A stretch of DNA of 64,000 bases. Origin: Longimicrobiales bacterium (lineage in GTDB: Bacteria > Gemmatimonadota > Gemmatimonadetes > Longimicrobiales > Gaopeijiaceae). The notes beneath the pieces were generated by a model. It saw nothing but the letters and a program-made list of their open reading frames with translations. It made no database searches and had not been told where the DNA came from. The stretch lies in the NCBI GenBank assembly GCA_965203485.1, contig OZ241892.1, forward strand, positions 1,120,001 through 1,184,000, given 5' to 3'. Shown here one piece after another: positions 46,546 through 63,564 of this stretch (within the stretch, counting starts at the first letter, position 1; each line of letters opens with the position of its first letter). A program made the position numbers and the translations under genes.

Positions 46546-48038
46546 CGCTCGACTACGCCTCCAGCTTCCACTACTTGGTGGCGTTGCTGCCGGAGCTGCT
46601 CGTGTTCGTGGGAGGGATGGCCGTGCTGCTCGCGGGCGTCTCCAAGCGCGACGGCGAACGGCGGCCGGAGCTGGGCTGGGCGACCCTGGGGGTTTTGGCG
46701 GCGGCCGCCGTCGCGAACGGCTGGCTCTACTCGGTGAGCGAGAACGGCGCCACGGCCATGATCGCCGTGGACGACTTCCGCCTCTTCGCCAACTGGATCT
46801 TCATCGTGGGCGCGGCTCTCGCGATCGCGATATCGCTGGCCTACGTGTCGCGCCAGCGCCTCCAGGCGGCCGAGTACTACGCGCTGATCGCGTTCGCGAC
46901 GGTCGGCATGATGGTGATGGCGGCGGCCCGCGACCTGATGATCGTCTTCCTGGGCATGGAGACGATGTCCATCGCGGTGTACGCGCTGGCCGCCTTCAAC
47001 CGCCGCGACCCGCGCTCCGCCGAGGCCGGCCTCAAGTACTTCCTGCTCGGCGCGTTCGCGAGCGGCTTCCTGCTGTTCGGCATCGCGCTGGTCTACGGCG
47101 CGGCGGGAAGCACCAACTTGCACGCGATTGCGGTCGCCGTGCAGGACGGCGCCGCGGCGAGCAGCCTGATGATCCCGGGCGTCGCCCTGCTCGTGACCGG
47201 CTTCGCGTTCAAGGTGTCGGCCGTGCCCTTCCACATGTGGACTCCGGATGCCTACGAAGGGGCGCCGACTCCGGTGACCGCGTTCATGGCGTCGACGGTC
47301 AAGGCGGCCGCTTTCATCGCGCTGGCGCGGATACTCTTCGTCGGCCTCGACGGCGTCTACCAAGAATGGTGGCGCATCCTCTGGTGGCTCGCGGCGGTAA
47401 CGATGGTCGCGGGCAACTTGGTGGCGGTCGTGCAGTCCAGCATCAAGCGGATGCTGGCCTACTCGTCCATCGCGCACGGGGGATATCTTCTCGTCGCGCT
47501 GGTGGCCGCCAACGACTTGGCCGCCGCGGGGCTCCTCTTCTACCTCTTCGTGTACACGGTAATGAACATCGGCGCCTTCGCCGTGGTCGTCACCGTCGGG
47601 CGGCAGTCAGAACGCAACGCCGCCGTCGAGAGCTACGCCGGATATGGATGGCGAAGACCGGTCCTGGGCACCCTGATGACGCTGTTCCTCCTGTCGCTGG
47701 CGGGCTTCCCGGGCACCGGCGGCTTCATGGCCAAGTTCTACTTGCTGCAGGGCGCGGCCGACGCGGGCCTGTGGTCGCTCATAGTCGTCTTGGTCGTCAC
47801 CACGTTGGTCTCGTACTGGTACTACCTGCGCGTGGCTTGGTTCATGTGGATGAAGGAGGCCCCGGCGGAAGCGGCCCGAGCGGCCCGAGCCACGCCGTTC
47901 GCCATCTACGTGGTGCTGATCATCTGCGCCGGCCTGGTCTTGGTGACGGGCGTCTTCCCAGGCGCGGCGATCGACTTCGCGCAGGCATCCGTGGACGGAC
48001 TGCGACACTTGGTGGCGGGTGCCGCGCCGGATGGTTGA
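46542..48038 (+). CDS. nuoN: NADH-quinone oxidoreductase subunit N
   Basis: SAEAGLKYFLLG, FKVSAVPFHMWTPDAYEGAP, KRMLAYSSIAH.GY, SLAGFP. Confidence 0.96.
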   Translation: MTLDYASSFHYLVALLPELLVFVGGMAVLLAGVSKRDGERRPELGWATLGVLAAAAVANGWLYSVSENGATAMIAVDDFRLFANWIFIVGAALAIAISLAYVSRQRLQAAEYYALIAFATVGMMVMAAARDLMIVFLGMETMSIAVYALAAFNRRDPRSAEAGLKYFLLGAFASGFLLFGIALVYGAAGSTNLHAIAVAVQDGAAASSLMIPGVALLVTGFAFKVSAVPFHMWTPDAYEGAPTPVTAFMASTVKAAAFIALARILFVGLDGVYQEWWRILWWLAAVTMVAGNLVAVVQSSIKRMLAYSSIAHGGYLLVALVAANDLAAAGLLFYLFVYTVMNIGAFAVVVTVGRQSERNAAVESYAGYGWRRPVLGTLMTLFLLSLAGFPGTGGFMAKFYLLQGAADAGLWSLIVVLVVTTLVSYWYYLRVAWFMWMKEAPAEAARAARATPFAIYVVLIICAGLVLVTGVFPGAAIDFAQASVDGLRHLVAGAAPDG

Positions 48039-48433
48039 TCAACCCGTGGATATGCAACCGCCGAGCGGCAAGAAGTCGTTCCTTGACGCGGCGGAACAAG
48101 TGTTGCAAGCCTTGAACCCCGGTGAGCAACTGCACTATGGCGAAATCGCACGGCGGGCCCTGGAAGAAGAACTCATCGTGGAAAAGCGCCAGACTCCGGA
48201 CGCGACGTTGAGGGCGAAGATCAGAACGGACATACGTCGGCGGGAGGTACGGGGCGACCCACAACGCTTCGTGCGCGGCGGGCGCGGCATGTATGGTTTG
48301 GCCGACGATCGCGTGTCGGGACCCATACCCAAGGAGATTTCCCGGCACAACAGGGAGGCGCGGGACCAGCTCCTTGAGCAAGCGAGAAAGGGGTCTTCTG
48401 ACGAGTTCGAGGGTCTCGTTGAGAGACTACTAG

Positions 48434-49288
48434 AGCCTATCTCAAAAAGCATGATGGGTTGCGATGGGCCGGGGAGTTGTTCATCTTCGAGGCATGACGA
48501 CGGTGAAGCTGAGCGACGAGCAGTGGGAGCGGATTCGCCACCACTTCCCCGAGGAAGCGCAAAAGGGGAAGCGGCTGGGGCGGCCGCCGGTGCCCGCTCG
48601 GCGCGTGTTCGAGGCAGCGCTGTGGATTCTGCACACGGGCGCCCAGTGGAGCTTTCTGCCGCAACACTATCCGAACTACAAGACCGTGCACCAGAGGTTC
48701 CAGACTTGGATCCGGACGGGCGTGCTCGAACGGGTGCTGAGGGACTTGGCGGGGGAAGCGAGGCAACGGGGTCTCTTCGACGGCACGGAGGCATACGTGG
48801 ACGCGTCGTTCGCGCGGGCGAAGGGAGGCGGGGCGGGCGTGGGAAACACCAAGGCGGGCAAGGGCGTGAAGATCATGGCGGTCGTGGACCGTTGCGGTCT
48901 TCCGCTGTCGTTGAGCACGCATCCTGCGAATCCTCACGAGGCGACGCTCGTCCAGTTGTCGCTGGACTTGGCGTTCACGGACGACACGCCGGCAAACTTG
49001 ATCGGCGACAAGGCGTACGACAGCGACCCGCTGGACGCGGCCTTGCGTGCGCGAGGCATCGAGATGATCGCGCCGCACCGGCGCAATCGAACGCGGCCGC
49101 GGACGCAGGACGGTCGTCGGCTTCGGCGGGCGAAGCGACGATGGATTGTCGAGCGGTTCTTCGGGTGGATGCAGTGGAAGCGCCGGCTGTTGGTCCGTTG
49201 GGAATATCATCCCGAGAACTTCCTGGCGTTCGTCCAACTGTCCGCCATCTGCATCTTCTTCAACCATCTCGGCTTTTTGAGATAGGTT
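48434..49288 (+). mobile_element. IS5-family insertion sequence, 855 bp, CTAG (or TA) target duplication
   Basis: Left IR AGCCTATCTCAAAAAGC (48434-48450) and right IR GCTTTTTGAGATAGGTT (49272-49288) match 16/17; CTAG at 48430-48433 and 49289-49292. Confidence 0.95.
48494..49285 (+). CDS. IS5-family DDE transposase (single ORF, 263 aa)
   Basis: LSDEQW, GRP, WILHTGAQW..LP, VDAS, G.K...VVD, GDKAYDSD, RWIVERFFGW; the stop codon lies inside the right IR. Confidence 0.93.
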   Translation: MTTVKLSDEQWERIRHHFPEEAQKGKRLGRPPVPARRVFEAALWILHTGAQWSFLPQHYPNYKTVHQRFQTWIRTGVLERVLRDLAGEARQRGLFDGTEAYVDASFARAKGGGAGVGNTKAGKGVKIMAVVDRCGLPLSLSTHPANPHEATLVQLSLDLAFTDDTPANLIGDKAYDSDPLDAALRARGIEMIAPHRRNRTRPRTQDGRRLRRAKRRWIVERFFGWMQWKRRLLVRWEYHPENFLAFVQLSAICIFFNHLGFLR

Positions 49289-50324
49289 CTAGTCGAGATG
49301 GGCTTCGCGGACGTTGAGAAGACGCCTATGAGTCGCGACGGTGGGATCGACGTGCGCGGGACCTTGATCGTAGGCGATGTTGTGCGCATTCGCATGGCCG
49401 TACAGGCAAAGAGATGGAAGCAAGATGTAGGTCCGGCGATTGTGCGGGAGCTTCGAGGAGCGATGGGTCCGGACGAACACGGACTTGTCATCACGACCAG
49501 TGAGTTCACCAAGGGAGCACAAGACGAGGCGACACGCGCTAATGCTCGCTCTGTTGCACTCATGGACGGCAAGCAACTGGCCGACCTCCTTGCCTGGTAC
49601 CAGATTGGGGTGAAACGCAAGGAGCATGCGCTCTTCGTGCTTGATTCTCCCGAATCCGAGCACCGTTGAAACCGACTCTACCGCGCGGGGTCAAGTCGGT
49701 TGAAAGAACGCGGCGATCCGGCGTGAAGAGATGGCGACGAGCTGCCCAGACGAGGATATCCTGGGACTGGATGAGGCCACCTACGGCAAGGGTTGCCGAC
49801 TCGGCCTCCGCCGTCACGGACTAGGATCCATCCAGACGACGGCTCCGGTCCATGTTGCGACTTCATCGCCGAAGTCGGCACCGTGCCCAGTGGCCGACTG
49901 GCTTCTCGGCGAAGGTCGGCGCAGGCCATGGTCTCCGTAGCACGCTCCGCCGCAATTCGGCGGACAACAGTCTTCTTCCTCGCTCTTCCGTCGAGGCATG
50001 TCGGTGTGCCAGTCAACTGCATCGACGGCGCTGCATTCAGCAATGGTTCAACGGATGGCTCCTGTGCACGCATCGTCGCTTCCACGTACTCTCGGCGGCG
50101 GTAGCCGTCAAATAGTGCGGCGAGCGCCATGGCCTGAGCACTGTCGGATTCGCTATTGCCGGCAAATGTCGCCCAACCGTTCGGCGCATCGGCGTCTCCC
50201 TGCGAACGGCGGGCGCTTGTCGGCGACCGGCCCGTGCCGGGCCGCCACCAGCACTCCTTCTTCGTTGTCGTTCGACAGAAATATGCGAGGCATCTACGGA
50301 CGTGAAGTCGCCTCAATCGCCACG

Positions 50325-53300
50325 TCAAACTCCTCCCTTTGCCCGCTTGGTCCGGAATCTGATCTGTCTGACGAGATCTCGGCGAAGCGACTCCTGCCGA
50401 TCTTCCAGCCCGAAGAACCTCAATACCATTTCGTCGATGGCCAAGTGCTCGTCCGTGCGGACCTCCTGGTCGACCGGAAGGGGCTCTCGTTTCCTCAGGA
50501 CGTCGAAGACGGCCCTTGCGCTGTCCGCGAAGTCGAAGGATAAATCCACCGGCAAAGCTTTCATGTCCGTCGCTTCGGCCTTGAGCAGTCCACCTCCGAG
50601 GTTCTTTCGGCCCGTGACTTCTCTGTACAACCAGACAAGAGACGAGTTCATGTATGCCCACAAGGAGTAGTGCAGATCCGATTCCCAGAGCTCAGCAGGC
50701 AAGTACAGCTCTACGGCGCTGTAGGAAAACGCTCTGCATGAATTGAAGACGCAATAGTGCTTGTTGCCTACGCCGCGCGGCATCACCAGCGCAGGTATTT
50801 TGTCTTCGGTCCGGGCCAACGACGATGGAATACGATCCGGGGCGTCGTCGGCGGCAAATGCTGCTCGTCCCGTGAGGGTCAGAATCGGCGTGTCCCGGCG
50901 GTTGCTCTGGAGCGCGTGCTTCGGAAAGTTGAGCCCTTGACCGAAGCGTGCGATGGCCTTCTTCTTCTCTGGGCGGTCATCACAGCGAGACATCCGATGT
51001 AGCGCATCTGCAAGATAATCTGGCATCGCGATTAAGTGACCCCACTTCATGTTGCTGACGGAATCGATCTCTTTCTTGACGCCGAAAGCCATTCTGGAAT
51101 CGGCAACGAGGTACTCGATGGGCTTGCCCGGCGTTCGCGAAAACAATGTGATTACGGCATTGATGTTCTGACTCCGGGTATCGGAGAAGAACTTGCCGGA
51201 CGTGTCGACGATCTTTTCGAAAGATGCTTTGTTCAAAGAGAAAATCTGAAACTTCTTGCCGTAGTCGGTGCTCAGCCATGCGTTGTGCGTGATGAAGCAA
51301 CCATGCCCGTCGGTCGCCAAGACTCGAAGCCCGCGAGCATAAAAGTAGATGAGAAGATCGCTGCCTCGCGGCAAGCTCTCGCTCCAATCCCGTCGTACCT
51401 GCTCTCCATAGGAGTCCTTCATCTCCGGCGACAGGAGGCTGTTGCGAGATTCCACGTACGGCGGATTTCCGATCACGATGTCGAAGCCGTCGCCTATGCC
51501 GAACATCCATTCCGGGTCGAACCAGCAGGCATGTTTGTTTTGATCGTAGGGGTTCCACCGTGCGATCAGTTTTGCGGCGTCCTTGCCCCAGTCGTCTTCG
51601 ATCAACGCCTCGTGGAGCAGTCGGCGGATCCGCTTGTCCTGCTTCTTCAGCTCCCACTTCTGGTCCCGCGTACGGGCGTCGAACCAGTCGGATCTGACCT
51701 GCTCCAGCTCTTCTTCCAGGTTCTTGACTCTTGTGTTGGGGAGGGTCCGTTGCGGGGGTCCGTTCAGACCGATCAACGCATCTGCCGCGACGAAGCGGGT
51801 CTCCAGGTTCGGCAAGGCCTGGATGCCGTAGTTGTCGTCGGGATCGTCGTTGGACTGCTGCTCGATCACCAACGAGATGAAGAAGCGCAGCTTGGCGATT
51901 TGGCAGGCGATGGGCTGGATGTCCACGCCGTGGATTACGTTCTGGATCAGGTACAGCTTGCGACCGTAGTCGCCGTAGTTTCGCTCCGGCGAGAAGCTTT
52001 TCTCCACGGCCGCCACGGCGTCCCGCCGGGCCACGGGGTCGGGAATATCCCGGGCGCGGGCCAATTGGCGTTTCTTCCACCGCTGGTTGTCGGGGTCGAC
52101 CTTCGCCAGAACCGACACGAGCTTCTGAAGGATGCCCATGGGGAACGCCCCCGAGCCGCAGGCGGGATCCAGGACCTTCATGGAGTCGATCGCGTCGATC
52201 AGAGGCTCGACCTCGTCGTCGCGCATCTGGCGGCCGGCTGGCGAGCCTGGATCGGCGCTCCGCGTCGCGACGAGCTTGCGGAGGCGTGCCTCGAGCCCGG
52301 AGCTGGAGCCGTCGCGGGGACGCATGTGGGCACGGAAGTGGGCGACCAGCGCCTCGTCCACCATGTAGTCCACGACGCGACGGGGCGTGTAGTAGGAGCC
52401 CGTGGCCTTGCGGGCCGTGTCGCGCGTCTCGGGGTTGTAGGAGGCCAGCAGGTTCTCGAAGGCGCGGCCCAGAAGCTCGGGGTCGAGCGCCACTTCCTCG
52501 TCCAGCGGCGTGTTCTCTTCGATGGTGAACTTGTAGCGGCGAAACAACGGGAAGAGACCGCCCTCATCGAAGAACAGCCGGGCCGGGACCGACAGCTCGC
52601 CGCCGTGGTTCGGGAGGTCGATGTTGTCGGTGAACGCGTCGATGCGACGACCGCCGCCGCGCACATGCTCGAAGTCGTCCAGGCAGTCGAACAGGCCGCC
52701 GTCCACGAACGGAACGGAGCGGAGCCGCTCCGCAAAGCGGTCGGGGTGGCGGAGCAAGTCACGATAGCGGTATCTGGTGAAGTCTCGATGCGTGCTCTTG
52801 TCCTTCTTGCTGAAGGATCGGCGGCGTATCTCCGTGTTCAACGTGGCAAAGAACAGGTTCTGCAGCACGGCGCGGTAGTAGTCGGTAGCGTCGTCCGCGT
52901 GATGCTTCAGCTGGCTCCGGGCGAAGTGATCCTCGAAGAGGGCGTCGGGCACTAGACGCTTCTCCTTGAGGAACCAGACGAACAACAAGCGGGTGATCAA
53001 GCGGATGACGTGCCGCTCCGTGTTGCCCTCGCCCACGCCGTCGTCGGGAAAGTTGCATTCCTTCGTCGCTCGCTGGAACCAAGCGAAGAGGTCCGCGTAG
53101 AAGCGGCGATTCAGCTCGCCCGTGTCGAGGACGGCTTCCCACGCTTCAAGGAGCTCGTCGAAGTTGGAGACCTTGCGTTGTTGGATCAGCTGGTCGAACG
53201 CAAGCTCCGAGAGCAGCTGAAGATGCGCGCGATGAGGATTCTCCAGGCTCACGTCCTTGATGAGCGACACGCGCTCGAGGACGTCCCTGTCGGCGTCCAA

Positions 53301-53813
53301 CTTGTGCAGCCGACGGTGAATCACGGCCATGGTGAGGTGCGGAGAGCCGTTGTCGTCTCGGTGCCGGAAGCAGACGACCGTGGGCATCGGGAAGATGTGG
53401 TTCACGGCTCGGGTGGAGGCGGTGAAGTAGGAGCGCGAGCGGCGCCCGGACTTCAAGTCGACGGCGAGGAACAGGAACGACTTCGCGATGCCGTCGTCGA
53501 AGTGGCTGGCCTGCGTCGAAGAAGTCGGCGGGCTGGGCCGGCCGTCGGTGATGTCGCTCGTCCGCGCAACCTCGTCGTTCGTGAACTGGAAGACGATGTC
53601 CATGTCTTCCCATTGCTCGAACGTGGCCAGCTGACCGGCGGCGAGCCTGTCCGCAGCCCGCACGTCCTCCAGAAAGACGTCGACAGAAGGGAAGTCGATC
53701 GTCCGGTCGCTGCGGTAGCCGAGCGTCCCGAGCAGGGCTTCGGTGCAATCCGCAAGCGATCCGTCGGCCAGATCTCGGAGCGCGTCTCGGATCGTCCTCT
53801 CCGCTTCGCTCAT
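50325..53813 (-). CDS. Eco57I/type IIG-like N6-adenine DNA methyltransferase, copy B (1162 aa; specificity region B)
   Basis: RLITRLLF.WF, GGLF, DPELLG..FENLL, TGSYYTPR, motif I LDPACGSGAF, GVDIQ, motif IV IGNPPY; start ATG 53813. Confidence 0.9.
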   Translation of the reverse strand: MSEAERTIRDALRDLADGSLADCTEALLGTLGYRSDRTIDFPSVDVFLEDVRAADRLAAGQLATFEQWEDMDIVFQFTNDEVARTSDITDGRPSPPTSSTQASHFDDGIAKSFLFLAVDLKSGRRSRSYFTASTRAVNHIFPMPTVVCFRHRDDNGSPHLTMAVIHRRLHKLDADRDVLERVSLIKDVSLENPHRAHLQLLSELAFDQLIQQRKVSNFDELLEAWEAVLDTGELNRRFYADLFAWFQRATKECNFPDDGVGEGNTERHVIRLITRLLFVWFLKEKRLVPDALFEDHFARSQLKHHADDATDYYRAVLQNLFFATLNTEIRRRSFSKKDKSTHRDFTRYRYRDLLRHPDRFAERLRSVPFVDGGLFDCLDDFEHVRGGGRRIDAFTDNIDLPNHGGELSVPARLFFDEGGLFPLFRRYKFTIEENTPLDEEVALDPELLGRAFENLLASYNPETRDTARKATGSYYTPRRVVDYMVDEALVAHFRAHMRPRDGSSSGLEARLRKLVATRSADPGSPAGRQMRDDEVEPLIDAIDSMKVLDPACGSGAFPMGILQKLVSVLAKVDPDNQRWKKRQLARARDIPDPVARRDAVAAVEKSFSPERNYGDYGRKLYLIQNVIHGVDIQPIACQIAKLRFFISLVIEQQSNDDPDDNYGIQALPNLETRFVAADALIGLNGPPQRTLPNTRVKNLEEELEQVRSDWFDARTRDQKWELKKQDKRIRRLLHEALIEDDWGKDAAKLIARWNPYDQNKHACWFDPEWMFGIGDGFDIVIGNPPYVESRNSLLSPEMKDSYGEQVRRDWSESLPRGSDLLIYFYARGLRVLATDGHGCFITHNAWLSTDYGKKFQIFSLNKASFEKIVDTSGKFFSDTRSQNINAVITLFSRTPGKPIEYLVADSRMAFGVKKEIDSVSNMKWGHLIAMPDYLADALHRMSRCDDRPEKKKAIARFGQGLNFPKHALQSNRRDTPILTLTGRAAFAADDAPDRIPSSLARTEDKIPALVMPRGVGNKHYCVFNSCRAFSYSAVELYLPAELWESDLHYSLWAYMNSSLVWLYREVTGRKNLGGGLLKAEATDMKALPVDLSFDFADSARAVFDVLRKREPLPVDQEVRTDEHLAIDEMVLRFFGLEDRQESLRRDLVRQIRFRTKRAKGGV
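51453..53813 (-). repeat. 2,361-bp direct repeat, copy B (MTase constant region)
   Basis: Near-identical to 55111-57471 at an offset of 3,658 bp; homology ends at the NPPYV codons. Confidence 0.95.
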
Positions 53814-53841
53814 TCCGGACCTGTCCCGGTTGAGGAGACGG

Positions 53842-56800
53842 TCATGCTGACGTGACGTGCCGCCCCGGACTCGGGGAGCTACGGTCCACACCGATACGTC
53901 GCTCCACTGCCGCAACTTCCTGCGCAGTGAGCTTGTAGAGACGGTACACCAGACGATCCACTCTCTCTTCGATCTCACCGATCGCCGAGTCGTCCCCGTC
54001 TTCCTTTGCTATGTCGATCAGGAGATGGGCCAACTCGACGATGGATCGTTCGTCCTCTCTACTGAGCTTCGGCACCGGGATCGCCTCTACGATGTATTTA
54101 TTCCACTGAGGACGCCCTTTACCGGTCGTCGGTGCGATGCGGTCCACGAGCCACGACACCAGGGTGCTGTTGAGAACAGCGCACAGATAGGGGAGCGACT
54201 CTCCCGACATCACGAACACCTTGTTGTTGCAGTACATCTCGTCGTCGGAATACGCAAATCGTCCGCAGTCGGCTATTTCCATCCAAAAAAGCTTTTCGTG
54301 TCCAAAGCGGGCGTGAGTTTCGTCGCTTGGGCTAGCCTGGAGCTCATACCATGCGTTTGCGCCCGACTTCCTGGACAGGGCCCCCTTATGGCGTTGAAGC
54401 CAGGCGAACACTCCGGGATACCTCTCGATTTCGGTTCCGCGGCGCACCAGTATCAGCCACCGGTCGTTGAATCGAGCGTGCCACCGCCGAATGTCTCGCC
54501 CCTGAAGTAGCGGCTTGACGATCTCGGCTACCCCCGGGTCCTCGGCCAGCAACTGCTCCCGAGTCGCGCCGTTGATTACAAAGGCCTGATTGTAGCCGGT
54601 CTTGATGCCATTGTTCATGATGACTTTCCATTCCTTCAACGGAATGCCTACTGCCTTCTTCATCTTGTCCATGACGCCTTGCTCGATCTTCGACAGCACC
54701 ACCCACGGCTCGGCGTTGCGCGGCCGGAATCGACCCCAGTGCCGATCTTCAGGCGGGAAGTCGCCAACGTTCAAGCGATCCATGTCCACCGTCATGCATG
54801 GGCCTTCGTGTTTGCCCTCGCGCAGGATCAGAATGCTCGAGTCCACGATCGCGTTCTCAAAGACGTCCTTGCCCAGCTCGACCAGCCTAAGCGGTGCATG
54901 GTTCTCGGCAAGAAGCCGTCGCGTCGCCTTGCCGTACGCAGCCCGCAGCCAGCTGTTTGACGTGATGTAGGTCAGTACGCCTTTGCGTGCGGCGAGCAAC
55001 CGGCAACCCTTCTCGTAGAAGAGCTGGTACACGTCGCCTCTTTTCGTGAACGTGCGGTAGCCGCGAGAACCGTACAGCCTCGCAAGAACGCTCCCCTGCT
55101 TCTGTAGCTGCACGTACGGCGGATTTCCGATCACGATGTCGAAGCCGTCGCGGACGCCGAACATCCACTCCGCGTCGAACCAGCAGGCGTGCTTGTTCTG
55201 ATCGTAGGGGTTCCAGCCCGCGATCAGATTGGCGGCCTTCTTGTTCCATTCGTCTTCAGTCAGCGCCTCGTGGAGCCGGCGGCGGATCCGCTTGTCCTGC
55301 TTCTTCAGCTCCCACTTCTGGTCCCGCGTACGGGCGTCGAACCAATCGGATCTGACCTGCTCCAGCTCTTCTTCCAGGTTCTTGACTCTTGTGTTGGGGA
55401 GGGTCCGTTGCGGGGGTCCGTTCAGACCGATCAACGCATCTGCCGCGACGAAGCGGGTCTCCAGGTTCGGCAAGGCCTGGATGCCGTAGTTGTCGTCGGG
55501 ATCGTCGTTGGACTGCTGCTCGATCACCAACGAGATGAAGAAGCGCAGCTTGGCGATTTGGCAGGCGATGGGCTGGATGTCCACGCCGTGGATTACGTTC
55601 TGGATCAGGTACAGCTTGCGACCGTAGTCGCCGTAGTTTCGCTCCGGCGAGAAGCTTTTCTCCACCGCTGTCACGGCGTCCCGCCGGGCCACGGGGTCGG
55701 GAATATCCCGGGCGCGGGCCAATTGGCGTTTCTTCCACCGCTGGTTGTCGGGGTCGACCTTCGCCAGAACCGACACGAGCTTCTGAAGGATGCCCATGGG
55801 GAACGCCCCCGAGCCGCAGGCGGGATCCAGGACCTTCATGGAGTCGATCGCGTCGATCAGAGGCTCGACCTCGTCGTCGCGCATCTGGCGACCGGCTGGC
55901 GAGCCTGGATCGGCGCTCCGCGTCGCGACGAGCTTGCGGAGGCGTGCCTCGAGCCCGGAGCTGGAGCCGTCGCGGGGACGCATGTGGGCACGGAAGTGGG
56001 CGACCAGCGCCTCGTCCACCATGTAGTCCACGACGCGACGGGGCGTGTAGTAGGAGCCCGTGGCCTTGCGGGCCGTGTCGCGCGTCTCGGGGTTGTAGGA
56101 GGCCAGCAGGTTCTCGAAGGCGCGGCCCAGAAGCTCGGGGTCGAGCGCCACTTCCTCGTCCAGCGGCGTGTTCTCTTCGATGGTGAACTTGTAGCGGCGA
56201 AACAACGGGAAGAGACCGCCCTCATCGAAGAACAGCCGGGCCGGGACCGACAGCTCGCCGCCGTGGTTCGGGAGGTCGATGTTGTCGGTGAACGCGTCGA
56301 TGCGACGACCGCCGCCGCGCACATGCTCGAAGTCGTCCAGGCAGTCGAACAGGCCGCCGTCCACGAACGGAACGGAGCGGAGCCGCTCCGCAAAGCGGTC
56401 GGGGTGGCGGAGCAAGTCATGATAGCGGTATCTGGTGAAGTCTCGATGCGTGCTCTTGTCCTTCTTGCTGAAGGATCGGCGGCGTATCTCCGTGTTCAAC
56501 GTGGCAAAGAACAGGTTCTGCAGCACGGCGCGGTAGTAGTCGGTAGCGTCGTCCGCGTGATGCTTCAGCTGGCTCCGGGCGAAGTGATCCTCGAAGAGGG
56601 CGTCGGGCACTAGACGCTTCTCCTTGAGGAACCAGACGAACAACAAGCGGGTGATCAAGCGGATGACGTGCCGCTCCGTGTTGCCCTCGCCCACGCCGTC
56701 GTCGGGAAAGTTGCATTCCTTCGTCGCTCGCTGGAACCAAGCGAAGAGGTCCGCGTAGAAGCGGCGATTCAGCTCGCCCGTGTCGAGGACGGCTTCCCAC

Positions 56801-57471
56801 GCTTCAAGGAGCTCGTCGAAGTTGGAGACCTTGCGTTGTTGGATCAGCCGGTCGAACGCAAGCTCCGAGAGCAGCTGAAGATGCGCGCGATGAGGATTCT
56901 CCAGGCTCACGTCCTTGATGAGCGACACGCGCTCGAGGACGTCCCTGTCGGCGTCCAACCTGTGCAGCCGACGGTGAATCACGGCCACGGTGAGGTGCGG
57001 AGAGCCGTCGTCGTCTCGGTGCCGGAAGCAGACGACCGTGGGCATCGGGAAGATGCGGTTCACGGCTCGGGTGGAGGCCGTGAAGTAGGAGCGCGAGCGG
57101 CGTCTGGACTTCAAGTCGACGGCGAGGAACAGGAACGACTTCGCGATGCCGTCGTCGAAGTGGCTGGCCTGCGTCGAAGAAGTCGGCGGGCTGGGCCGGC
57201 CGTCGGTGATGTCGCTCGTCCGCGCAACCTCGTCGTTCGTGAACTGGAAGACGATGTCCATGTCTTCCCATTGCTCGAACGTGGCCAGCTGACCGGCGGC
57301 GAGCCTGTCCGCAGCCCGCACGTCCTCCAGAAAGACGTCGACAGAAGGGAAGTCGATCGTCCGGTCGCTGCGGTAGCCGAGCGTCCCGAGCAGGGCTTCG
57401 GTGCAATCCGCAAGCGATCCGTCGGCCAGATCTCGGAGCGCGTCTCGGATCGCCGTCTCCGCTTCGCTCAC
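53842..57471 (-). CDS. Eco57I/type IIG-like N6-adenine DNA methyltransferase, copy A (1209 aa; TaqI_C-like specificity region)
   Basis: Same motifs as copy B; C-terminus has GIKTGYNQAFVI, KPLLQGRDIRRW, WYELQ, YLCAVLNS, VYRLYKLT. Confidence 0.9.
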   Translation of the reverse strand: MSEAETAIRDALRDLADGSLADCTEALLGTLGYRSDRTIDFPSVDVFLEDVRAADRLAAGQLATFEQWEDMDIVFQFTNDEVARTSDITDGRPSPPTSSTQASHFDDGIAKSFLFLAVDLKSRRRSRSYFTASTRAVNRIFPMPTVVCFRHRDDDGSPHLTVAVIHRRLHRLDADRDVLERVSLIKDVSLENPHRAHLQLLSELAFDRLIQQRKVSNFDELLEAWEAVLDTGELNRRFYADLFAWFQRATKECNFPDDGVGEGNTERHVIRLITRLLFVWFLKEKRLVPDALFEDHFARSQLKHHADDATDYYRAVLQNLFFATLNTEIRRRSFSKKDKSTHRDFTRYRYHDLLRHPDRFAERLRSVPFVDGGLFDCLDDFEHVRGGGRRIDAFTDNIDLPNHGGELSVPARLFFDEGGLFPLFRRYKFTIEENTPLDEEVALDPELLGRAFENLLASYNPETRDTARKATGSYYTPRRVVDYMVDEALVAHFRAHMRPRDGSSSGLEARLRKLVATRSADPGSPAGRQMRDDEVEPLIDAIDSMKVLDPACGSGAFPMGILQKLVSVLAKVDPDNQRWKKRQLARARDIPDPVARRDAVTAVEKSFSPERNYGDYGRKLYLIQNVIHGVDIQPIACQIAKLRFFISLVIEQQSNDDPDDNYGIQALPNLETRFVAADALIGLNGPPQRTLPNTRVKNLEEELEQVRSDWFDARTRDQKWELKKQDKRIRRRLHEALTEDEWNKKAANLIAGWNPYDQNKHACWFDAEWMFGVRDGFDIVIGNPPYVQLQKQGSVLARLYGSRGYRTFTKRGDVYQLFYEKGCRLLAARKGVLTYITSNSWLRAAYGKATRRLLAENHAPLRLVELGKDVFENAIVDSSILILREGKHEGPCMTVDMDRLNVGDFPPEDRHWGRFRPRNAEPWVVLSKIEQGVMDKMKKAVGIPLKEWKVIMNNGIKTGYNQAFVINGATREQLLAEDPGVAEIVKPLLQGRDIRRWHARFNDRWLILVRRGTEIERYPGVFAWLQRHKGALSRKSGANAWYELQASPSDETHARFGHEKLFWMEIADCGRFAYSDDEMYCNNKVFVMSGESLPYLCAVLNSTLVSWLVDRIAPTTGKGRPQWNKYIVEAIPVPKLSREDERSIVELAHLLIDIAKEDGDDSAIGEIEERVDRLVYRLYKLTAQEVAAVERRIGVDRSSPSPGRHVTSA
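55111..57471 (-). repeat. 2,361-bp direct repeat, copy A (MTase constant region)
   Basis: Near-identical to 51453-53813. Confidence 0.95.
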
Positions 57472-57481
57472 TTCCTTTCGC

Positions 57482-60400
57482 TCATTGGTTGGGATTCTCC
57501 ATGATCACGAGCCACGTCACGAGTTCGAAGTCGGCGCCGGCGGCAGGACGGCGCGACCGAGCGGCAAGAGATGTCTCCCGGCGTCCGACGAACGAGCCGA
57601 TCTCCGCTTGGCGGTATGTGCTCTCGACGCTCCGGATGCAAGCGCGGATCATTCGGTCGTACTTGGCCACGTCCCGGCCGTGACGGGTTTCTCGGTCGAA
57701 TGCGCTCGCCAGCTCCGTCAGGGCCTCCGCCCGTCCCCGAGCCAGCGCGCTGAAGAGAGTCAGCGTCTGCTTGGCCTGCTTGAAGGCGTAGCGGACGCTC
57801 CCGTCGTCGCGGACGTAGGCGAGGAAGTAGGGCTGGAGGCGGTTCGGCGTTCTCCGTTCCCCGTCTTTCTGCTTGAGACAGAAGATAGCGCCGGGACGAA
57901 CGCGCGCGGGAGCCGCTTCGCCGGATTCGCCCGCGCCTCCGCCGGGAACGGGCGGAACCACGGCTTGAATGCCGAAGGGCGCGGACTCCAACGCCTCCCG
58001 GTTCTCCTGCAGGTAGTTGAGCAGGTCCACCAGGAAGTCGTCCAGGGTGAAGTCGCTCATGGAGATGCCGTCCTCGACCTCTTCCAGGTCCAGGCTCTCC
58101 TCTCGCAGGCGGCGGAGTTGCCGGTCGCGGAAGCTCAGTTCGTGCCGAACCGCCTCCTCGGCGCCGTTGGTCTTCGGCGCCAGCGGGTCGTCGGTTCCCG
58201 TCGCCGCCGCGTCCACCAGGGCCATCCGGGCCTCGACCCGGTTCTTGAGGTCCAGATAGCGGTCCAGGTCCCCGGTCGGCCAGAAGTTGGCCATGGCGAC
58301 CTGATGGTTGCGGCTGCCGATCCGGTCGATGCGTCCGAAGCGCTGCATGAGGCGGACCGGATTCCAGTGGACGTCGTAGTTCACCACCAAGTCGCAGTCC
58401 TGCAGGTTCTGGCCCTCGGAAAGGCAGTCGGTGGCGATGAGGATGTCGATCTCCTCCGCGGGCCGGGGGATCAGCTGGGCCACGGGCGCAAAGCGCGCGA
58501 GAATGCCGGCGAAGCTCGGCGAGCCGATGGTGGCGCGGTTGTCGCCGCTTCCCGTCACCAAGCCCACGTGCACGCCGAGCTCCGCGCGCGCCCACTCCGC
58601 AACGTTGCGGTACAGATAGTGGGCCGTGTCGGAGAAGGTCGTGAAGACCAGGGCTTTGCGGTTCGCTCGCCCGTCCTTGTCGGCAGGCGCCTCCGCCACC
58701 TTGTCCGCCAGCGTCCGCTTCAGCTCGGCCAGCTTGGCGTCGCGCGCCACGTCGACACGGACGACCTGCCGCAGAATCGTCCCGAAGGAGCGTCGGTCCG
58801 CCTTCAAGTCCTCCTTCCAAGCCTGCAGGTCCAGGTCGGCAAGCCTGTACCTGCGCCCTCGGCCCAGGGTGAACTCCTCGTCCTCTTCGTCGCCTCGGTC
58901 GTCTTCGTCGTCGCTGGCCAGGAGGTTGATCTGTTGGTTGCCGGGCTTTTCTATCCAGGCGTCGATGCGCTCGTCTAGCGCGTCCATTTTCGCGACGATG
59001 CGTTCCATCGTCCGCGTGAACGAGTGCACCGAACTCTCCAGCCGCTTGAGCAAGTTGACCCGCATCATTCCGATCAGCCAGCGCTCCCGGTCCCGCTGGT
59101 CGAAGTGCAACCGCTCCTTTTCGGCGTCGAGCGCCGACGTGTCCCGCACGTACTGGGAAGGCATGTACACCGCCAGGCGAAAGTCGCTGATCCGCCCGTG
59201 CAAGGCATCGTAGGACAGCTCGCCGGCGCTGTCGGTCGGCGGATGCAGGTTCACCGGCTTGGCCCGCTCCGGGAAGCCGCCGATCCGAGTCTCGACCTCC
59301 GGGTAGAAACGCCGCACGTGGTCGCGGGAGCGCGCGATGCTGACGGCGTCCAGCAACGCCAAGAAATCGGCGCCTAGCTGTTCGAGCAGCTGGGTCTTGT
59401 CCCGATGGCCCGTGGCCTTGCAGTCGTTCTCCCACTTCTGGAACGCCTTCTGCGCCACGCCGAACAAGCTTTGGACGCTCCCTATCCCGAGGCTCTCGCG
59501 GAACGCGTCCTGGCGCTTCTCGGTCATCAGGTAGATCTGATTGCGCAGGTCGCGAAGTCCCGTGTTGACGGGCGTTGCCGAGAGCATGAGCACTTTGGTG
59601 TGGACGCCGCCCCTGAGCACTTCCTCCAACAGGCGGTTGTAGCGGCTGCGACGCACCACGCGCCCGGCCTCGTCCTTCCGGTCGCGGCCTTCGTTGCGAA
59701 AATTGTGCGACTCGTCGATCACGATCAGGTCGAAGGCGCTCCAGTTGAACTTGGCCAAGTCAATGGCGTCCGACTTGCCGTGGTACCGGCTCAAGTCGGT
59801 GTGGGCAAGCACCGTGTAGCCGAACCGGTCCTCGACCAGCGGGTTGTTGTCGTAGCCCGCCCACGAGGTGTAGCGGACCCAGTTCTCCTTCAGCTTCTTG
59901 GGACAGAGCACCAGCACGCGCTCGTTGCGCATCTCGAAGAACTTGGCGACTGCCAGGGCGGTCCACGTCTTCCCCAGCCCGACGCTGTCCGCGAGGATGC
60001 ATCCGTTGTGATCGAGCAGCCGGTTGATCGCGCTCACGGCGCCGTCCCTCTGAAACCGGTAGAGCGCCTGCCAAACGGCGGTGTCGTGCAGCTGAACGTC
60101 CTGCACGAGGCCGTCCCGTTGTCCGCGTTCGTCGATCCGGTCCTTCAGGACGTGAAAGAGCGTCTTGTAGTAGAGGAACTCGGGCGAATAGTCCTTGCCC
60201 AAGCGCTCCAGCGCCGCCAGCACCTGCTCCTTCGCGTCGCGGGTAAGCTGCTCGTCGCACCAGAGAGCGTCGAACCATTCGAGCAGCCGGGCCCGGTCGG
60301 CGCCGTCGCGGACTTCGATGTTGAGCTCGATGTTGGGGTTGGCGCCGAAGCCCAGGCCGCCCCGAGTGAAGTTGGAGCTGCCCGCAAGGGCGGCGGTGTC

Positions 60401-60823
60401 GCCGTCGGCGTTCTCCACGCAGTACAACTTGCCGTACAGGAAGTTGGCCTTGCGCACGGTGCGCACCTCCACCTTCTCCTTGATCCACTGCGCGCACGCG
60501 CGAGCGAGGGGCTTCTGCGTCAGCGCGCGACGCAACTCCAGGGCGCCGTCGCGAGTGAGCCGGTAGGCTTTGTCTTCGCCCTCCGCCGGGTCCACCGAGG
60601 CCGCGCCCTCCGGCTGGCCGTAGAGGAAGCGAAGCCGTCGGAGCCCCTCCAGCTCGGTCCGAAGATCTCCGTAGGCGTAGATCGTGAAGTAGGCCGACAC
60701 GACGGAGAGCGTAGCGTCGGCTCGGAGGCGAGCCCCAAGGAACTTGCCCACGGTGCGGGCGCGGTTGTCCACGATGGCGTTCCTGTCGCGAACGGCCGCG
60801 GGCGGCCGCGGCTCCGTGCTCAT
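57482..60823 (-). CDS. PLD-like-domain SNF2-family helicase (DrmD-like), 1113 aa
   Basis: PLD-like SAYF...LYGKLY...GSSNFT...N.ELN; helicase LADSVGLGKT, IDESHNFRN, LSATP, ATDCLSEGQNLQ, WNPVRLMQRFGRIDRIG; start taken at ATG 60823. Confidence 0.9.
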   Translation of the reverse strand: MSTEPRPPAAVRDRNAIVDNRARTVGKFLGARLRADATLSVVSAYFTIYAYGDLRTELEGLRRLRFLYGQPEGAASVDPAEGEDKAYRLTRDGALELRRALTQKPLARACAQWIKEKVEVRTVRKANFLYGKLYCVENADGDTAALAGSSNFTRGGLGFGANPNIELNIEVRDGADRARLLEWFDALWCDEQLTRDAKEQVLAALERLGKDYSPEFLYYKTLFHVLKDRIDERGQRDGLVQDVQLHDTAVWQALYRFQRDGAVSAINRLLDHNGCILADSVGLGKTWTALAVAKFFEMRNERVLVLCPKKLKENWVRYTSWAGYDNNPLVEDRFGYTVLAHTDLSRYHGKSDAIDLAKFNWSAFDLIVIDESHNFRNEGRDRKDEAGRVVRRSRYNRLLEEVLRGGVHTKVLMLSATPVNTGLRDLRNQIYLMTEKRQDAFRESLGIGSVQSLFGVAQKAFQKWENDCKATGHRDKTQLLEQLGADFLALLDAVSIARSRDHVRRFYPEVETRIGGFPERAKPVNLHPPTDSAGELSYDALHGRISDFRLAVYMPSQYVRDTSALDAEKERLHFDQRDRERWLIGMMRVNLLKRLESSVHSFTRTMERIVAKMDALDERIDAWIEKPGNQQINLLASDDEDDRGDEEDEEFTLGRGRRYRLADLDLQAWKEDLKADRRSFGTILRQVVRVDVARDAKLAELKRTLADKVAEAPADKDGRANRKALVFTTFSDTAHYLYRNVAEWARAELGVHVGLVTGSGDNRATIGSPSFAGILARFAPVAQLIPRPAEEIDILIATDCLSEGQNLQDCDLVVNYDVHWNPVRLMQRFGRIDRIGSRNHQVAMANFWPTGDLDRYLDLKNRVEARMALVDAAATGTDDPLAPKTNGAEEAVRHELSFRDRQLRRLREESLDLEEVEDGISMSDFTLDDFLVDLLNYLQENREALESAPFGIQAVVPPVPGGGAGESGEAAPARVRPGAIFCLKQKDGERRTPNRLQPYFLAYVRDDGSVRYAFKQAKQTLTLFSALARGRAEALTELASAFDRETRHGRDVAKYDRMIRACIRSVESTYRQAEIGSFVGRRETSLAARSRRPAAGADFELVTWLVIMENPNQ

Positions 60824-60972
60824 CGGACCGACACTAACCGGTCGGGCCAGTGGAGAGTCGGCGCCGACAACTTGCCTGACCGCCAAGGCGGCCAACGTGA
60901 AGAAGCGATCGCGATGCCGCGATGGCGTCGCCGAAGTCGGTCCCCGCCTTCACCGGTTTCCTCTGCTGTTGC

Positions 60973-63564
60973 CTATCCCTTGGGCCTCTCCACCTGCAAC
61001 TCTGCGATGTCGGCGCTCCAGCGCTCGTCGCCGAGCAGGTGCTTGACGAAGTACTCGGCGCGTAGCCAGTACCAGTAGTCGCTCATGTCGCCGAAGCCGT
61101 GGCGCTGGCCGGGAAACACGAAGAAGTCGAAGCGCTTGTTGGCGCGAATGAGCGCCTCCGCCATGCGGAAGGTGCCCGCGTGATGGACGTTGTTGTCGAC
61201 GTCTCCCGTGGTCAGCAGAAGGCGGCCCTTCAAGTTGGCGGCCAAGTCCGAGTTGCGGTCGATGTCGTACTCGAAGCCGGTCACGACCCCCGCCGAATCC
61301 CTCACCTCCTTCACGCCGTCGTGCTTCTCGGACCAGTTGAGGTTGTACACGTCGTTGTCGTGGTTGCCGGCCGACGACACGGCTACCTTGAAGAAGTCGG
61401 GATAGACGAGCATCGCGGCGGTGGACATGAAGCCGCCGCCCGAATGACCGTAGATGCCGACCCGGCCCGCGTCGATGAAGTCGTGGCGGGCGGCGAGTTG
61501 CTCGATCGCTGCCTTCTTGTCCGCCAGTCCGTAGTCCCGAAGGTTGCCGTAGCCGTAGTTGTGGTACCACTTGGAGCGGTCGGGGTGCCCGCCCCGGTTG
61601 CCGACGGTGATGACGACGAAGCCGAACTGCGCCAGGCCCTGCTCGTACGGATTGAGCGAAAACGACTTGGCCACCGATTCCGTCTGCGGCCCGGGATAGA
61701 CGTAGGCGACGATAGGATAGGTCTTTTCGGCGTCGAAGTCGTAGGGGCGGTACATGACGCCGTGCAAGTCGGTCACGCCGTCGGCGGACTTGACGGCGTA
61801 GCGTTCGGGGAACTCGTAGCCCGCCGCCCGCAGCCGCGACAGATCCGCTTCCTCCAGATCCATGATCTTGCGTCCGCGCGCATCGTGGAGCGCCGAGGCG
61901 GGTCCCGCGTCCACGCGGGAGTAGTTGTCCACGAAGTAGCGCGCCGACTCGGCCGCCGAACTCTGGTGGTCGTAGTTGCCGGGGTTGAGCAGGGCGAGCC
62001 CCGACCCGTCCAGCCCCACTCGGTAGGCGTGCATGTAGTACGGGTCCTCGCCGGCTTCTCGGCCGTTGGCGCGGAAGAGCAGATAGCCGCCTTCCTCGTT
62101 CACGCCGACGACCGCATCCACGTGCCACGGTCCTTCGGTCAGCCGCGTTCGCACGGTCCCGTCCGGCGCGTAGCGGTACAAGTGGGCCCATCCGTCGCGC
62201 TCCGACCACCAGACCAGGTCGCCGTTCGCGAGCCTGCGCGGGGTCTGATGCTCCACATAGGTGTTAAGCCGCTCTTCGATCACCACCGTGGTCTCGCCCG
62301 TGGCGGGGTTCGCCCTGATCACGTCCACCCGGTGCTGGTTCCTGCTGCGCCGCCAAAAGTAGAGTTCGTCGGGACGGTCCGAGAGCCATTTGGCGACGGG
62401 GACTTCGTCCGGATCACGGCGGAAGCCCGAAGGCTCCACGAACACGCCCATCCTCTGGTCCTTCCACGGTTCGTCGTCGATCCGGCTCGCCTCTCTGGAC
62501 TCCATGTCGAAGACCCAAAGGCTGCTCTGCGTAACCGTCTCCTCGCCGGGCATGTCGTACTTGTAGGTCTCGAGCTGCGGACGCTTGTTGCCCACGGCGT
62601 GGACGACCCACAGCTCGCCGACTTCGCGCCGGTCCTGTCGCGTCAGCGCGAAATAGCGCGAGTCGTGCGACCACGCGACGCCTGGTCTCTGGCGCTTGCC
62701 GAACTCTTCCTCGGTCTCTTCGTCGTGGCGCCCGCGACCCTGAAAGCCGTAGCTGAAGTCCTTCTCGCCGTCGGTCGTCAGCTGGACCTCCTCGACCTCG
62801 GCGTCCTCTTCGGCGTCCTCCGCGTCGTCCCCCGACTTGCCTCTGCGCGCCTCGAGGATCTTCTCGTACTCCTCGTAGCTCATCATCCACAGATTGAACT
62901 CCCTGCTGAACACGACCCATGCCGTGTCCGGCGAGACGCTGGCCCATCCCGGATGGTTGTCGGGGGCCTCGTAGTCCTCCAACTCGCGAAGCGCGCGAGT
63001 CGCGACGTCGTACTCGAAGTGGTGAACCTTCTTGCGGGTGCGCGGCCGCTCTTGCTCTTCTTCCTGCTGGTCCTCCTCGTCCTCGATTTGCTCGTCGTCG
63101 CCCTCCTCCTCGTCGATCTCCTCGTCCTGCGACGACGTCACGTCGAACTGAATCGTGTTGTCGTCCGTGAAGCGGATGGACTGGATGGGCAAGTGCTTGC
63201 CGTCCCAGGGATCGAGCGTGATGCGGGTCAGCTCGGCCGCGATGCGGTCGTTGTCGAAGATCTCGGTCTTGGTTCCGCGCGCCGGATCCACGAGGAAGAA
63301 GCGCTTTCCCTCGGACGTCTCCCATTCGTACCAGAAGTGGTCCGAGCGCTTGATCCAACGCGGCGCGACGCGCAAGGAGTGGACCATTTCGCGGATCTTG
63401 TACGGCGCGAAGCGGGCGGCCATCTCGTAGTTCGCTGATCCCTCCGCTTCCTGGGCGAGCGCGGCGCGACCCGTCGGCAACCCGAACACGGCGGCGAAGA
63501 GAGCGGCTGACAGAACGCGGCAGGGGCGGACGCCTCTGCGCGCTGGACGGGTGGTGAACGTCAT
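60973..63564 (-). CDS. S9 family (DPP IV-like) serine peptidase, secreted
   Basis: Signal peptide ...GRAALA-QEA; beta-propeller WSERDGWAHLY; catalytic GHSGGG, GDVDNNVH, FPGQRHG; AGGAG before ATG 63564. Confidence 0.93.
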   Translation of the reverse strand: MTFTTRPARRGVRPCRVLSAALFAAVFGLPTGRAALAQEAEGSANYEMAARFAPYKIREMVHSLRVAPRWIKRSDHFWYEWETSEGKRFFLVDPARGTKTEIFDNDRIAAELTRITLDPWDGKHLPIQSIRFTDDNTIQFDVTSSQDEEIDEEEGDDEQIEDEEDQQEEEQERPRTRKKVHHFEYDVATRALRELEDYEAPDNHPGWASVSPDTAWVVFSREFNLWMMSYEEYEKILEARRGKSGDDAEDAEEDAEVEEVQLTTDGEKDFSYGFQGRGRHDEETEEEFGKRQRPGVAWSHDSRYFALTRQDRREVGELWVVHAVGNKRPQLETYKYDMPGEETVTQSSLWVFDMESREASRIDDEPWKDQRMGVFVEPSGFRRDPDEVPVAKWLSDRPDELYFWRRSRNQHRVDVIRANPATGETTVVIEERLNTYVEHQTPRRLANGDLVWWSERDGWAHLYRYAPDGTVRTRLTEGPWHVDAVVGVNEEGGYLLFRANGREAGEDPYYMHAYRVGLDGSGLALLNPGNYDHQSSAAESARYFVDNYSRVDAGPASALHDARGRKIMDLEEADLSRLRAAGYEFPERYAVKSADGVTDLHGVMYRPYDFDAEKTYPIVAYVYPGPQTESVAKSFSLNPYEQGLAQFGFVVITVGNRGGHPDRSKWYHNYGYGNLRDYGLADKKAAIEQLAARHDFIDAGRVGIYGHSGGGFMSTAAMLVYPDFFKVAVSSAGNHDNDVYNLNWSEKHDGVKEVRDSAGVVTGFEYDIDRNSDLAANLKGRLLLTTGDVDNNVHHAGTFRMAEALIRANKRFDFFVFPGQRHGFGDMSDYWYWLRAEYFVKHLLGDERWSADIAELQVERPKG

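Follow-up and report, generated by a model that had tools for sequence, protein, structure and literature searches.

The closest described relatives of the locus studied here are gene pairs in which an SNF2-type helicase lies beside a restriction-modification (RM) methyltransferase (MTase). In Prevotella intermedia 17F, the MTase Pin17FIII has an SNF2/RAD54 helicase upstream and a short inverted second gene (Johnston et al., PMC5608340), and when present alone in Escherichia coli it places N6-methyladenine (m6A) at 22363/22899 GGYGAB sites (PMC5608340 Table S3). Table 3 of Milman et al. (PMC9881135) contains type II RM genes that neighbor a phospholipase D-SNF (PLD-SNF) gene and whose specificity is changed by programmed inversion. 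Here we analyze a locus of this kind in a 64,000-nt stretch (hereafter the window) of the Longimicrobiales bacterium assembly GCA_965203485.1 (contig OZ241892.1, positions 1,120,001 to 1,184,000), in which a PLD-SNF2 helicase gene is followed on the minus strand by two full MTase genes, A and B, with unrelated target recognition domains (TRDs) (Table 1). The initial annotation had presented this module as a candidate undescribed one, which the two published descriptions contradict. The gene pair is already known, with MTase activity shown in a 36%-identical relative family, and what is new is the two-specificity, full-length tandem layout of this known, poorly studied and nameless pair. Our literature search, run on sources other than subscription journals and REBASE, found no name for the pair, no restriction or phage-protection test of it and no full-length tandem.

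A metagenome scan with the Pin17FIII primer from PMC5608340 gave 33 loci, 5 of them with the 1117-aa length of Pin17FIII. The best full-length MTases among them are ~36% identical to MTase A over residues 215-1190 (~975 aa, E 0), and 24 of the 33 loci have upstream a full PLD-SNF2 helicase with an intact HKD motif, 24% identical to that of the window (E about 1e-50). The Pin17FIII locus is therefore like the window in having an SNF2 helicase upstream of an m6A MTase of REBASE type IIG, but its second gene, as Johnston et al. (PMC5608340) describe it, is a 918-bp inverted piece, whereas the window has a full MTase; the Pin17FIII type also differs in its shorter, not detectably related N-terminal domain and its intact nuclease His. 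The PLD-SNF + Cj0031-like loci of Milman et al. (PMC9881135), which can be likened to the window by their description only, share the two-gene domain layout and the TRD-varied specificity, but there one gene is inverted whereas the window has two full co-oriented genes. Within the window block we met only the direct repeat and the full second gene, and no inverted spare TRD.

Table 1 Features of the locus, with positions counted from the first nucleotide of the window
Feature	Position	Strand	Basis or detail
PLD(HKD)-SNF2 helicase, 1113 aa; PLDc_2, SNF2, Helicase_C	57482..60823	-	Pfam, PADLOC, motifs, model
Codon 130 of the helicase, TAC (Tyr), at the HKD catalytic His position	60434..60436	-	alignment; 1648-nt contig
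MTase A, 1209 aa; DUF4391-like N-terminus (1-230), Eco57I/N6_Mtase, TRD type A (TaqI_C-like)	53842..57471	-	
MTase B, 1162 aa; Eco57I/N6_Mtase; N-terminal domain and core as in A, unrelated TRD type B	50325..53813	-	
Copy 1 of the direct repeat (core of MTase A); 98.3% identity with copy 2	55111..57470	-	
Direct repeat copy 2 (MTase B core)	51453..53812	-	
Variable block between nuoN and the S9 peptidase gene	48039..60972	.	
HARE-HTH-Mrr (type IV-like) nuclease gene	48052..49669	+	HARE-HTH, Mrr_cat, PDC-S02
IS5-family element	48434..49288	+	transposase 48464-49285, CTAG target duplication

The tight packing of helicase, MTase A and MTase B in a minus-strand operon, as first annotated, was borne out by the open reading frames (ORFs), with intergenic gaps of 10 nt and 28 nt. 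MTase A is a gamma-type adenine MTase (motifs DPACGSGAF and NPPY, the latter at residues 783-786), and both MTases have intact motifs I and IV. The repeat shared by A and B spans 2360 nt at 98.3% identity (39 mismatches) and ends at NPPY, beyond which the two proteins are only ~21% identical; from their unrelated TRDs we infer that A and B differ in specificity. The differences between the repeat copies cluster in the last 170 nt before NPPY, which are likely the edge of an exchanged cassette. The N-terminal domain is 97% identical in the two MTases, in keeping with the earlier proposal that one motor could serve two partners.

Depth data came from contigs of four runs on two samples, all from a single study that may be where the assembly came from. 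In the three runs of one sample, repeat depth was about twice the unique depth (94.6 vs 44-53, 288 vs 120-153 and 1180 vs 591-616), and in the run of the second sample ~4x. The A/B junction was bridged by a contig without difference in 3/4 runs. Repeat depth and junction-bridging contigs together rule out an assembly artefact as the origin of the tandem, which is real as far as contigs show. In run X4, the shared MTase core (window 51453-52886) stands at ~4x the depth of the unique parts, which suggests that the sample contains additional copies or strains with different TRDs. Among four more distant runs, two from sponge metagenomes (X6 and X7) contain pieces of the helicase, the core and TRD B that are 94-96% alike; most of TRD A is uncovered there, which carries no evidential weight.

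In HKD nucleases, the motif His acts as nucleophile and general acid. The PLD motif of the window helicase reads LYGK instead of LHGK, a change that the initial annotation had overlooked, so that where an active HKD/PLD nuclease has HxK this protein has YGK. Among its best 120 matches, the catalytic His is kept in 119/119 other proteins, one of them 95% identical to the window helicase. Sequencing error at codon 130 is unlikely, as a deep 1648-nt contig of run X3 covers the codon without difference and no variant occurs there among the variants listed. The HKD residues have been described as a conserved catalytic triad (PMC12839542), and by analogy the nuclease of the window helicase is probably dead. 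Since the nuclease His is replaced and the neighboring Mrr gene is split by IS5, the locus at present probably only methylates. The ATPase motifs of the helicase are intact (DSVGLGKT at 279, IDESHN at 369), and its model has a RapA/SNF2 fold (pLDDT, the predicted local distance difference test, 81). Two further HKD-intact PLD-SNF2 helicases, 33-35% identical, lie at C1:313657-317196 and C1:2034443-2037823 of the same genome (L009 and L013); both are present in both congeners, and L009 is near MTase-like ORFs.

Core and TRD were then compared across related loci. Core identities are 98.3, 95.9 and 83.3% for copies in one genome and 74-87% for copies from different genomes, and those of TRDs are 61-82% within type A, 66-74% within type B and 18-25% across types; because cores group by genome and TRDs by type, the TRDs have been exchanged. 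In a core tree of 30 rows (14 vs 16 by TRD label), a single clade of TRD-A carriers was rejected (approximately unbiased test, p-AU 7e-97), with at least 4 label changes. The window A and B cores are sisters inside a B-type relative in this tree, so TRD A is likely the graft. The TRD moves together with the final 170 nt that precede NPPY. Purifying selection acts on the TRDs (dN/dS, the ratio of nonsynonymous to synonymous divergence, of 0.11-0.22), and their GC content at third codon positions is 0.70-0.73 vs 0.865. Four clusters (48, 25, 21 and 16 members) hold 110/114 TRDs, and these four main swappable types would be a source of new m6A specificities.

Full-length tandem MTases recur among relatives as a minority arrangement. 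The neighborhood survey of MTase copy number that the initial annotation had proposed, scoring two candidates per genome in 401 genomes of the order, found the MTase in 12 and a tandem in 2/12. In one relative (G063, locus L017) the order is reversed, helicase-B-A, and ~30 nt of the helicase 3' end precede the second MTase; in another (G064) the helicase is deleted, and TRD B and the beginning of one more MTase are left as a decayed tandem remnant. In G061, A and B occupy separate loci (L014 and L015), both of them with a helicase; G062 has TRD B and another type 40 kb apart, and inverted half-TRDs occur at L018, L086 and L090. In a Poribacteria genome (G065, L074:7084-18604), three near-identical 1166-aa MTases with the same TRD follow a frameshifted helicase, either through amplification or as an assembly artefact. 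The earlier idea that such loci stack specificities thus stands insofar as a second specificity recurs in relatives, while actively broadened restriction in the window genome does not fit its HKD His-to-Tyr change. Its comparison with multiple hsdS genes of type I RM systems is apt for function only, as the window has no separate HsdR, HsdM and HsdS: MTase and TRD form one chain, and the motor is an SNF2 protein with a PLD domain.

The MTase N-terminus is, by profile comparison, a distant homologue of DUF4391 (hhalign 91%, E 1e-6), its sole Pfam match (E 0.025). A model of the N-terminal 240 aa (pLDDT 88.9) best matches the DrdV nuclease domain, a weak match (Z 4.7, root-mean-square deviation 4.4, 121 aligned) whose VIA-align Z falls within the range of common arrangements; other PD-(D/E)xK folds reach Z 3-3.7, and Foldseek gave no match to the model at E 0.001 or better. 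D/E119 is kept in 117/119 homologues and E81 in 116/119, and position 121 is K in 42/119 and E in 39. Of 52 helicase loci scored for a DUF4391-type domain, 4 were without downstream DNA, and 47 of the other 48 have the domain downstream, fused in 25 and free in 22 but never both. A FastTree of helicases (60 rows, without L067-L073 and without ORFs shorter than 850 aa) contains a sister clade of 22 helicases (support 100) that have lost the HKD and have a free DUF4391 downstream, followed by type III mod/res in most loci where this was read. Like the window, these SNF2 - DUF4391 - type III loci, as annotated in RefSeq, have a related helicase (35-41% identical) with the N-domain homologue directly downstream; unlike it, their HKD is lost, DUF4391 is free, and methylation and cutting are by Mod and Res. 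Complex prediction of helicase residues 362-1113 with the N-terminal domain gave 0.49 vs 0.01 for the best control, in a weak score class: the mark was reached by 116/157 solved pairs and 2/215 mismatched pairs, and scores of 0.60 or under hold only 18 of the solved pairs along with both passing mismatches. Runs agree in at least 73% of contacts and the partner pLDDT is at least 77. The complex modeling suggested with the first annotation accordingly separates the pair from its control, but at a weak score, and it lends weak support to the N-terminal domain as the likely helicase dock.

HKD-less SNF2 helicase - DUF4391 - mod - res operons were seen at L036, L043, L045, L048, L051, L060, L078, L082 and L083, and they occur in many phyla and also on plasmids. 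This arrangement was not found in the literature searched, and neither was a link of DUF4391 to such systems; the papers listed with the term were, by title, not on RM. At L030:3539-6517, an HKD-intact helicase is followed, with no MTase, by a 992-aa fusion of the N-terminal domain, TPR and sigma70 (regions 1.2-4), which recalls the sigma70-like AbiRa of AbiR.

We consider it probable, though by no means assured, that the locus is a two-gene PLD-SNF2 and MTase-TRD unit, likely an ATP-driven RM system, whose MTase was duplicated with a second, likely recombined-in TRD and which, its nuclease His being mutated, probably only methylates two motifs. In intact relatives, by analogy, each MTase-TRD would bind a short asymmetric sequence and mark host DNA with m6A, and its nuclease-fold N-terminal domain, with catalysis likely lost, would dock the helicase. 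At unmethylated sites, the SNF2 motor would translocate, bring HKD domains together and cut. Exchange of the segment that begins ~170 nt ahead of NPPY and runs to the stop codon would vary specificity, and relatives would reach several specificities by an inverted spare half-TRD, a second full locus, or tandem MTases on one helicase. The genus may be losing the cutting arm, with His-to-Tyr in the window, a deleted helicase and orphan MTase in congener G001, and neither gene found in congener G002. Several points weigh against this interpretation. Tandems are rare (2/12 MTase-bearing genomes), and the triple copies of the Poribacteria genome share one TRD, so that duplication need not add specificity. 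Restriction or phage protection by the pair was not found in the literature searched, and the deduction that His-to-Tyr abolishes activity comes from the general chemistry of HKD enzymes. MTases A and B keep D119-x-K121 and E81, so their own nuclease activity is possible. The DUF4391 match is distant, the fused and free profiles were built partly from the scored loci (23/25 and 7/22), and the Pin17FIII-type N-terminus has no detectable match to either profile, so that the dock may not extend to the whole family. A wider interpretation, which we hold only tentatively as possible but short of probable, is that an SNF2 translocase with a DUF4391-type adaptor defines a large nameless class of ATP-dependent defence modules with interchangeable partners (one or more MTase-TRD chains, type III Mod-Res, or a sigma70 fusion), in which a tandem makes the motor multi-specific at once.

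The tandem could instead be a passing recombination intermediate or a TRD reservoir, in which only one MTase counts at any given moment and recombination between the 2.36-kb repeat copies swaps one specificity for another or removes it instead of adding one. The repeat is very young (synonymous divergence, dS, 0.03), one copy is found in most genomes, the remnant in G064 is a collapsed tandem, and the family switches TRDs by inversion elsewhere (as listed in PMC9881135); collapse across the repeat would leave helicase + TRD B. Yet both MTase genes are full length, in frame, co-oriented and 28 nt apart, and the two MTases of G063 have been kept long enough for their cores to drift to 83% identity (dS 0.47). 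TRD A and TRD B contigs are also about equally deep (52.8 vs 49.6, 152.8 vs 146, 591 vs 616 and 123 vs 142), so no large collapsed subpopulation is visible, and we regard this explanation as unlikely. We give still less credence to each MTase being a complete type IIG enzyme, cutting unaided through its N-terminal domain, with the helicase as an accessory and two sequences still restricted despite Tyr130. The best PADLOC matches of the MTases are indeed type IIG, the weak DrdV resemblance of the N-terminal model and the near-invariant residues 119 and 81 point the same way, and K121 is present in both window copies. However, K121 is found in only a minority of homologues, the N-domain also occurs free as DUF4391 beside nuclease-bearing type III systems and fused to a TPR-sigma70 protein, and the helicase His is otherwise invariant in the clade. 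Very improbable, in our judgment, is an abortive-infection or toxin-antitoxin-like system in which, as in AbiR, a toxic helicase-nuclease is checked by methylation without site-directed cutting of invaders. AbiRc is described as a nuclease plus Snf2, AbiR as toxic without the LlaKR2I methylase (PMC13064643), and a nuclease that is repeatedly lost ahead of the MTase is in line with a cost of carrying it; but the PLD anti-phage model scored 134 vs a cut-off of 1100, the block has no room for AbiRa and AbiRb genes, and diversified TRDs under selection point to sequence-specific recognition.

The two-gene PLD-SNF2 and MTase-TRD unit was further compared with named systems, and the PADLOC check gave no full match to any of them, with scores for defence island system associated with restriction-modification (DISARM) and bacteriophage exclusion (BREX) below cut-offs. 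Class 1 DISARM comprises DrmD, DrmMI, DrmA, DrmB and DrmC, and it is like the window in its SNF2 helicase, adenine MTase and PLD nuclease domains. In the window, however, the PLD is fused to the helicase, the MTase is doubled and there is no drmA or drmB, as the initial annotation had noted and as ORFs, Pfam and the neighbor survey confirmed. That survey, of 110 neighboring ORFs within 4 kb of 22 related loci (6/116 being left out as MTase pieces or frames overlapping MTases), contained no DrmA/B/C, PglZ, BrxC or HmaC, and we treat the pair as a two-gene unit. Unrelated defence genes (DarG, PifA, SoFic, Pycsar, AriAB and TIR) lie beside several of these loci. DISARM was rejected, as no drmA/drmB (DUF1998) or drmC is in the block and the DrmD scores of the window helicase are far below cut-offs (146 vs 610; 83 vs 950 bits). 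The DUF1998/MZB genes of the genome, at 94,120 and 3,516,348, are far from the block and probably belong to YprA-type defence loci.

In the type-2 BREX-related (BR/Hma) systems, the predicted effector is a Swi2/Snf2 helicase with an HKD fused at its N-terminus, an N6-MTase is present, and the defining genes of the locus are a DUF499 ATPase and DUF3780 (PMC12839542). The window helicase has the same N-terminal HKD-Swi2/Snf2 fusion, with its His mutated, but its block has neither a third gene nor DUF499. DUF499 matches occur only at C1:1,113,078 and 2,925,691-2,927,595, 55 kb and 1.7 Mb away, and BR/Hma was rejected on the lack of DUF499 in the locus and of HmaC among neighbors; the two DUF499 ATPase genes probably mark BR/Hma loci elsewhere in the genome. 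BREX was rejected as well (PglX 69 and 57 vs cut-offs of 400-500, no PglZ or BrxC nearby), as were Dpd and Zorya, which were below cut-offs or lacked partner genes. The best PADLOC match of the window helicase is C3a139 'HKD+Snf2' (E 1.8e-114), which is reported only as a cluster with 4 members adjacent to type III CRISPR-cas cassettes (PMC6546367); the block, by contrast, has no cas gene. Among solved structures, no close relative of the helicase or MTases was found, the best being M.BseCI/7lni/TaqI and SNF2/RapA.

These comparisons leave a very large helicase family (7996 or more clustered proteins with E no higher than 1e-50) without a match to any named defence system. The pair suggests an architecture open to testing, in which a degenerate nuclease domain would have been put to new use as a motor dock, and with it a role for DUF4391, which would gain a function if the adaptor reading is true. 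Inside one bacterial family it also shows a natural gradation, with intact pairs, a nuclease-dead one and an orphan MTase. The window copy would be a poor choice for a defence assay, and a His-bearing relative is preferable.

The block occupies a variable hotspot between nuoN (end at 48038) and an S9 peptidase gene (end at 60973). As initially described, it is more A+T-rich than its surroundings (GC 0.632 vs 0.693 in the left flank and the genome) and no tRNA gene was found in the window. In congener G002, the site is empty (nuoN-to-peptidase distance 90 nt), and no helicase or MTase of the module's families was found. Congener G001 retains a helicase 5' remnant (first codons only) at this site; it also has, at another place, an MTase that bears TRD A, and the 19-kb region examined there contains no helicase; a transposase-like ORF and a 716-aa ORF accompany the remnant (L080). 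Helicases 80-90% identical to that of the window occur in Longimicrobiales / Gemmatimonadota, 2 of these genomes being in the window's family. Because the helicase dS to another genus (0.30) is lower than that between nuoN and its congener homologue (0.54), the comparison points to horizontal exchange of the helicase.

The converging HTH-Mrr gene, correctly called disabled in the initial annotation, is split by the IS5 element, of which the genome has 8 other near-full copies, and its frame is open for 252 aa once IS5 is removed. Its membership in the module was rejected, as an Mrr query matched 0/17 related loci, and by this comparison Mrr is a separate passenger outside the two-gene core. 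The 655 nt between Mrr and MTase B (window 49670-50324) are the one part of the block with no assigned gene; a 150-aa frame within them has no Pfam match, and they have no match in six related loci. A four-codon frame (MSER-K) at window 57471-57485 overlaps the stop of the helicase, and its own stop overlaps the GTG of MTase A; this frame is a short duplication of the start region.

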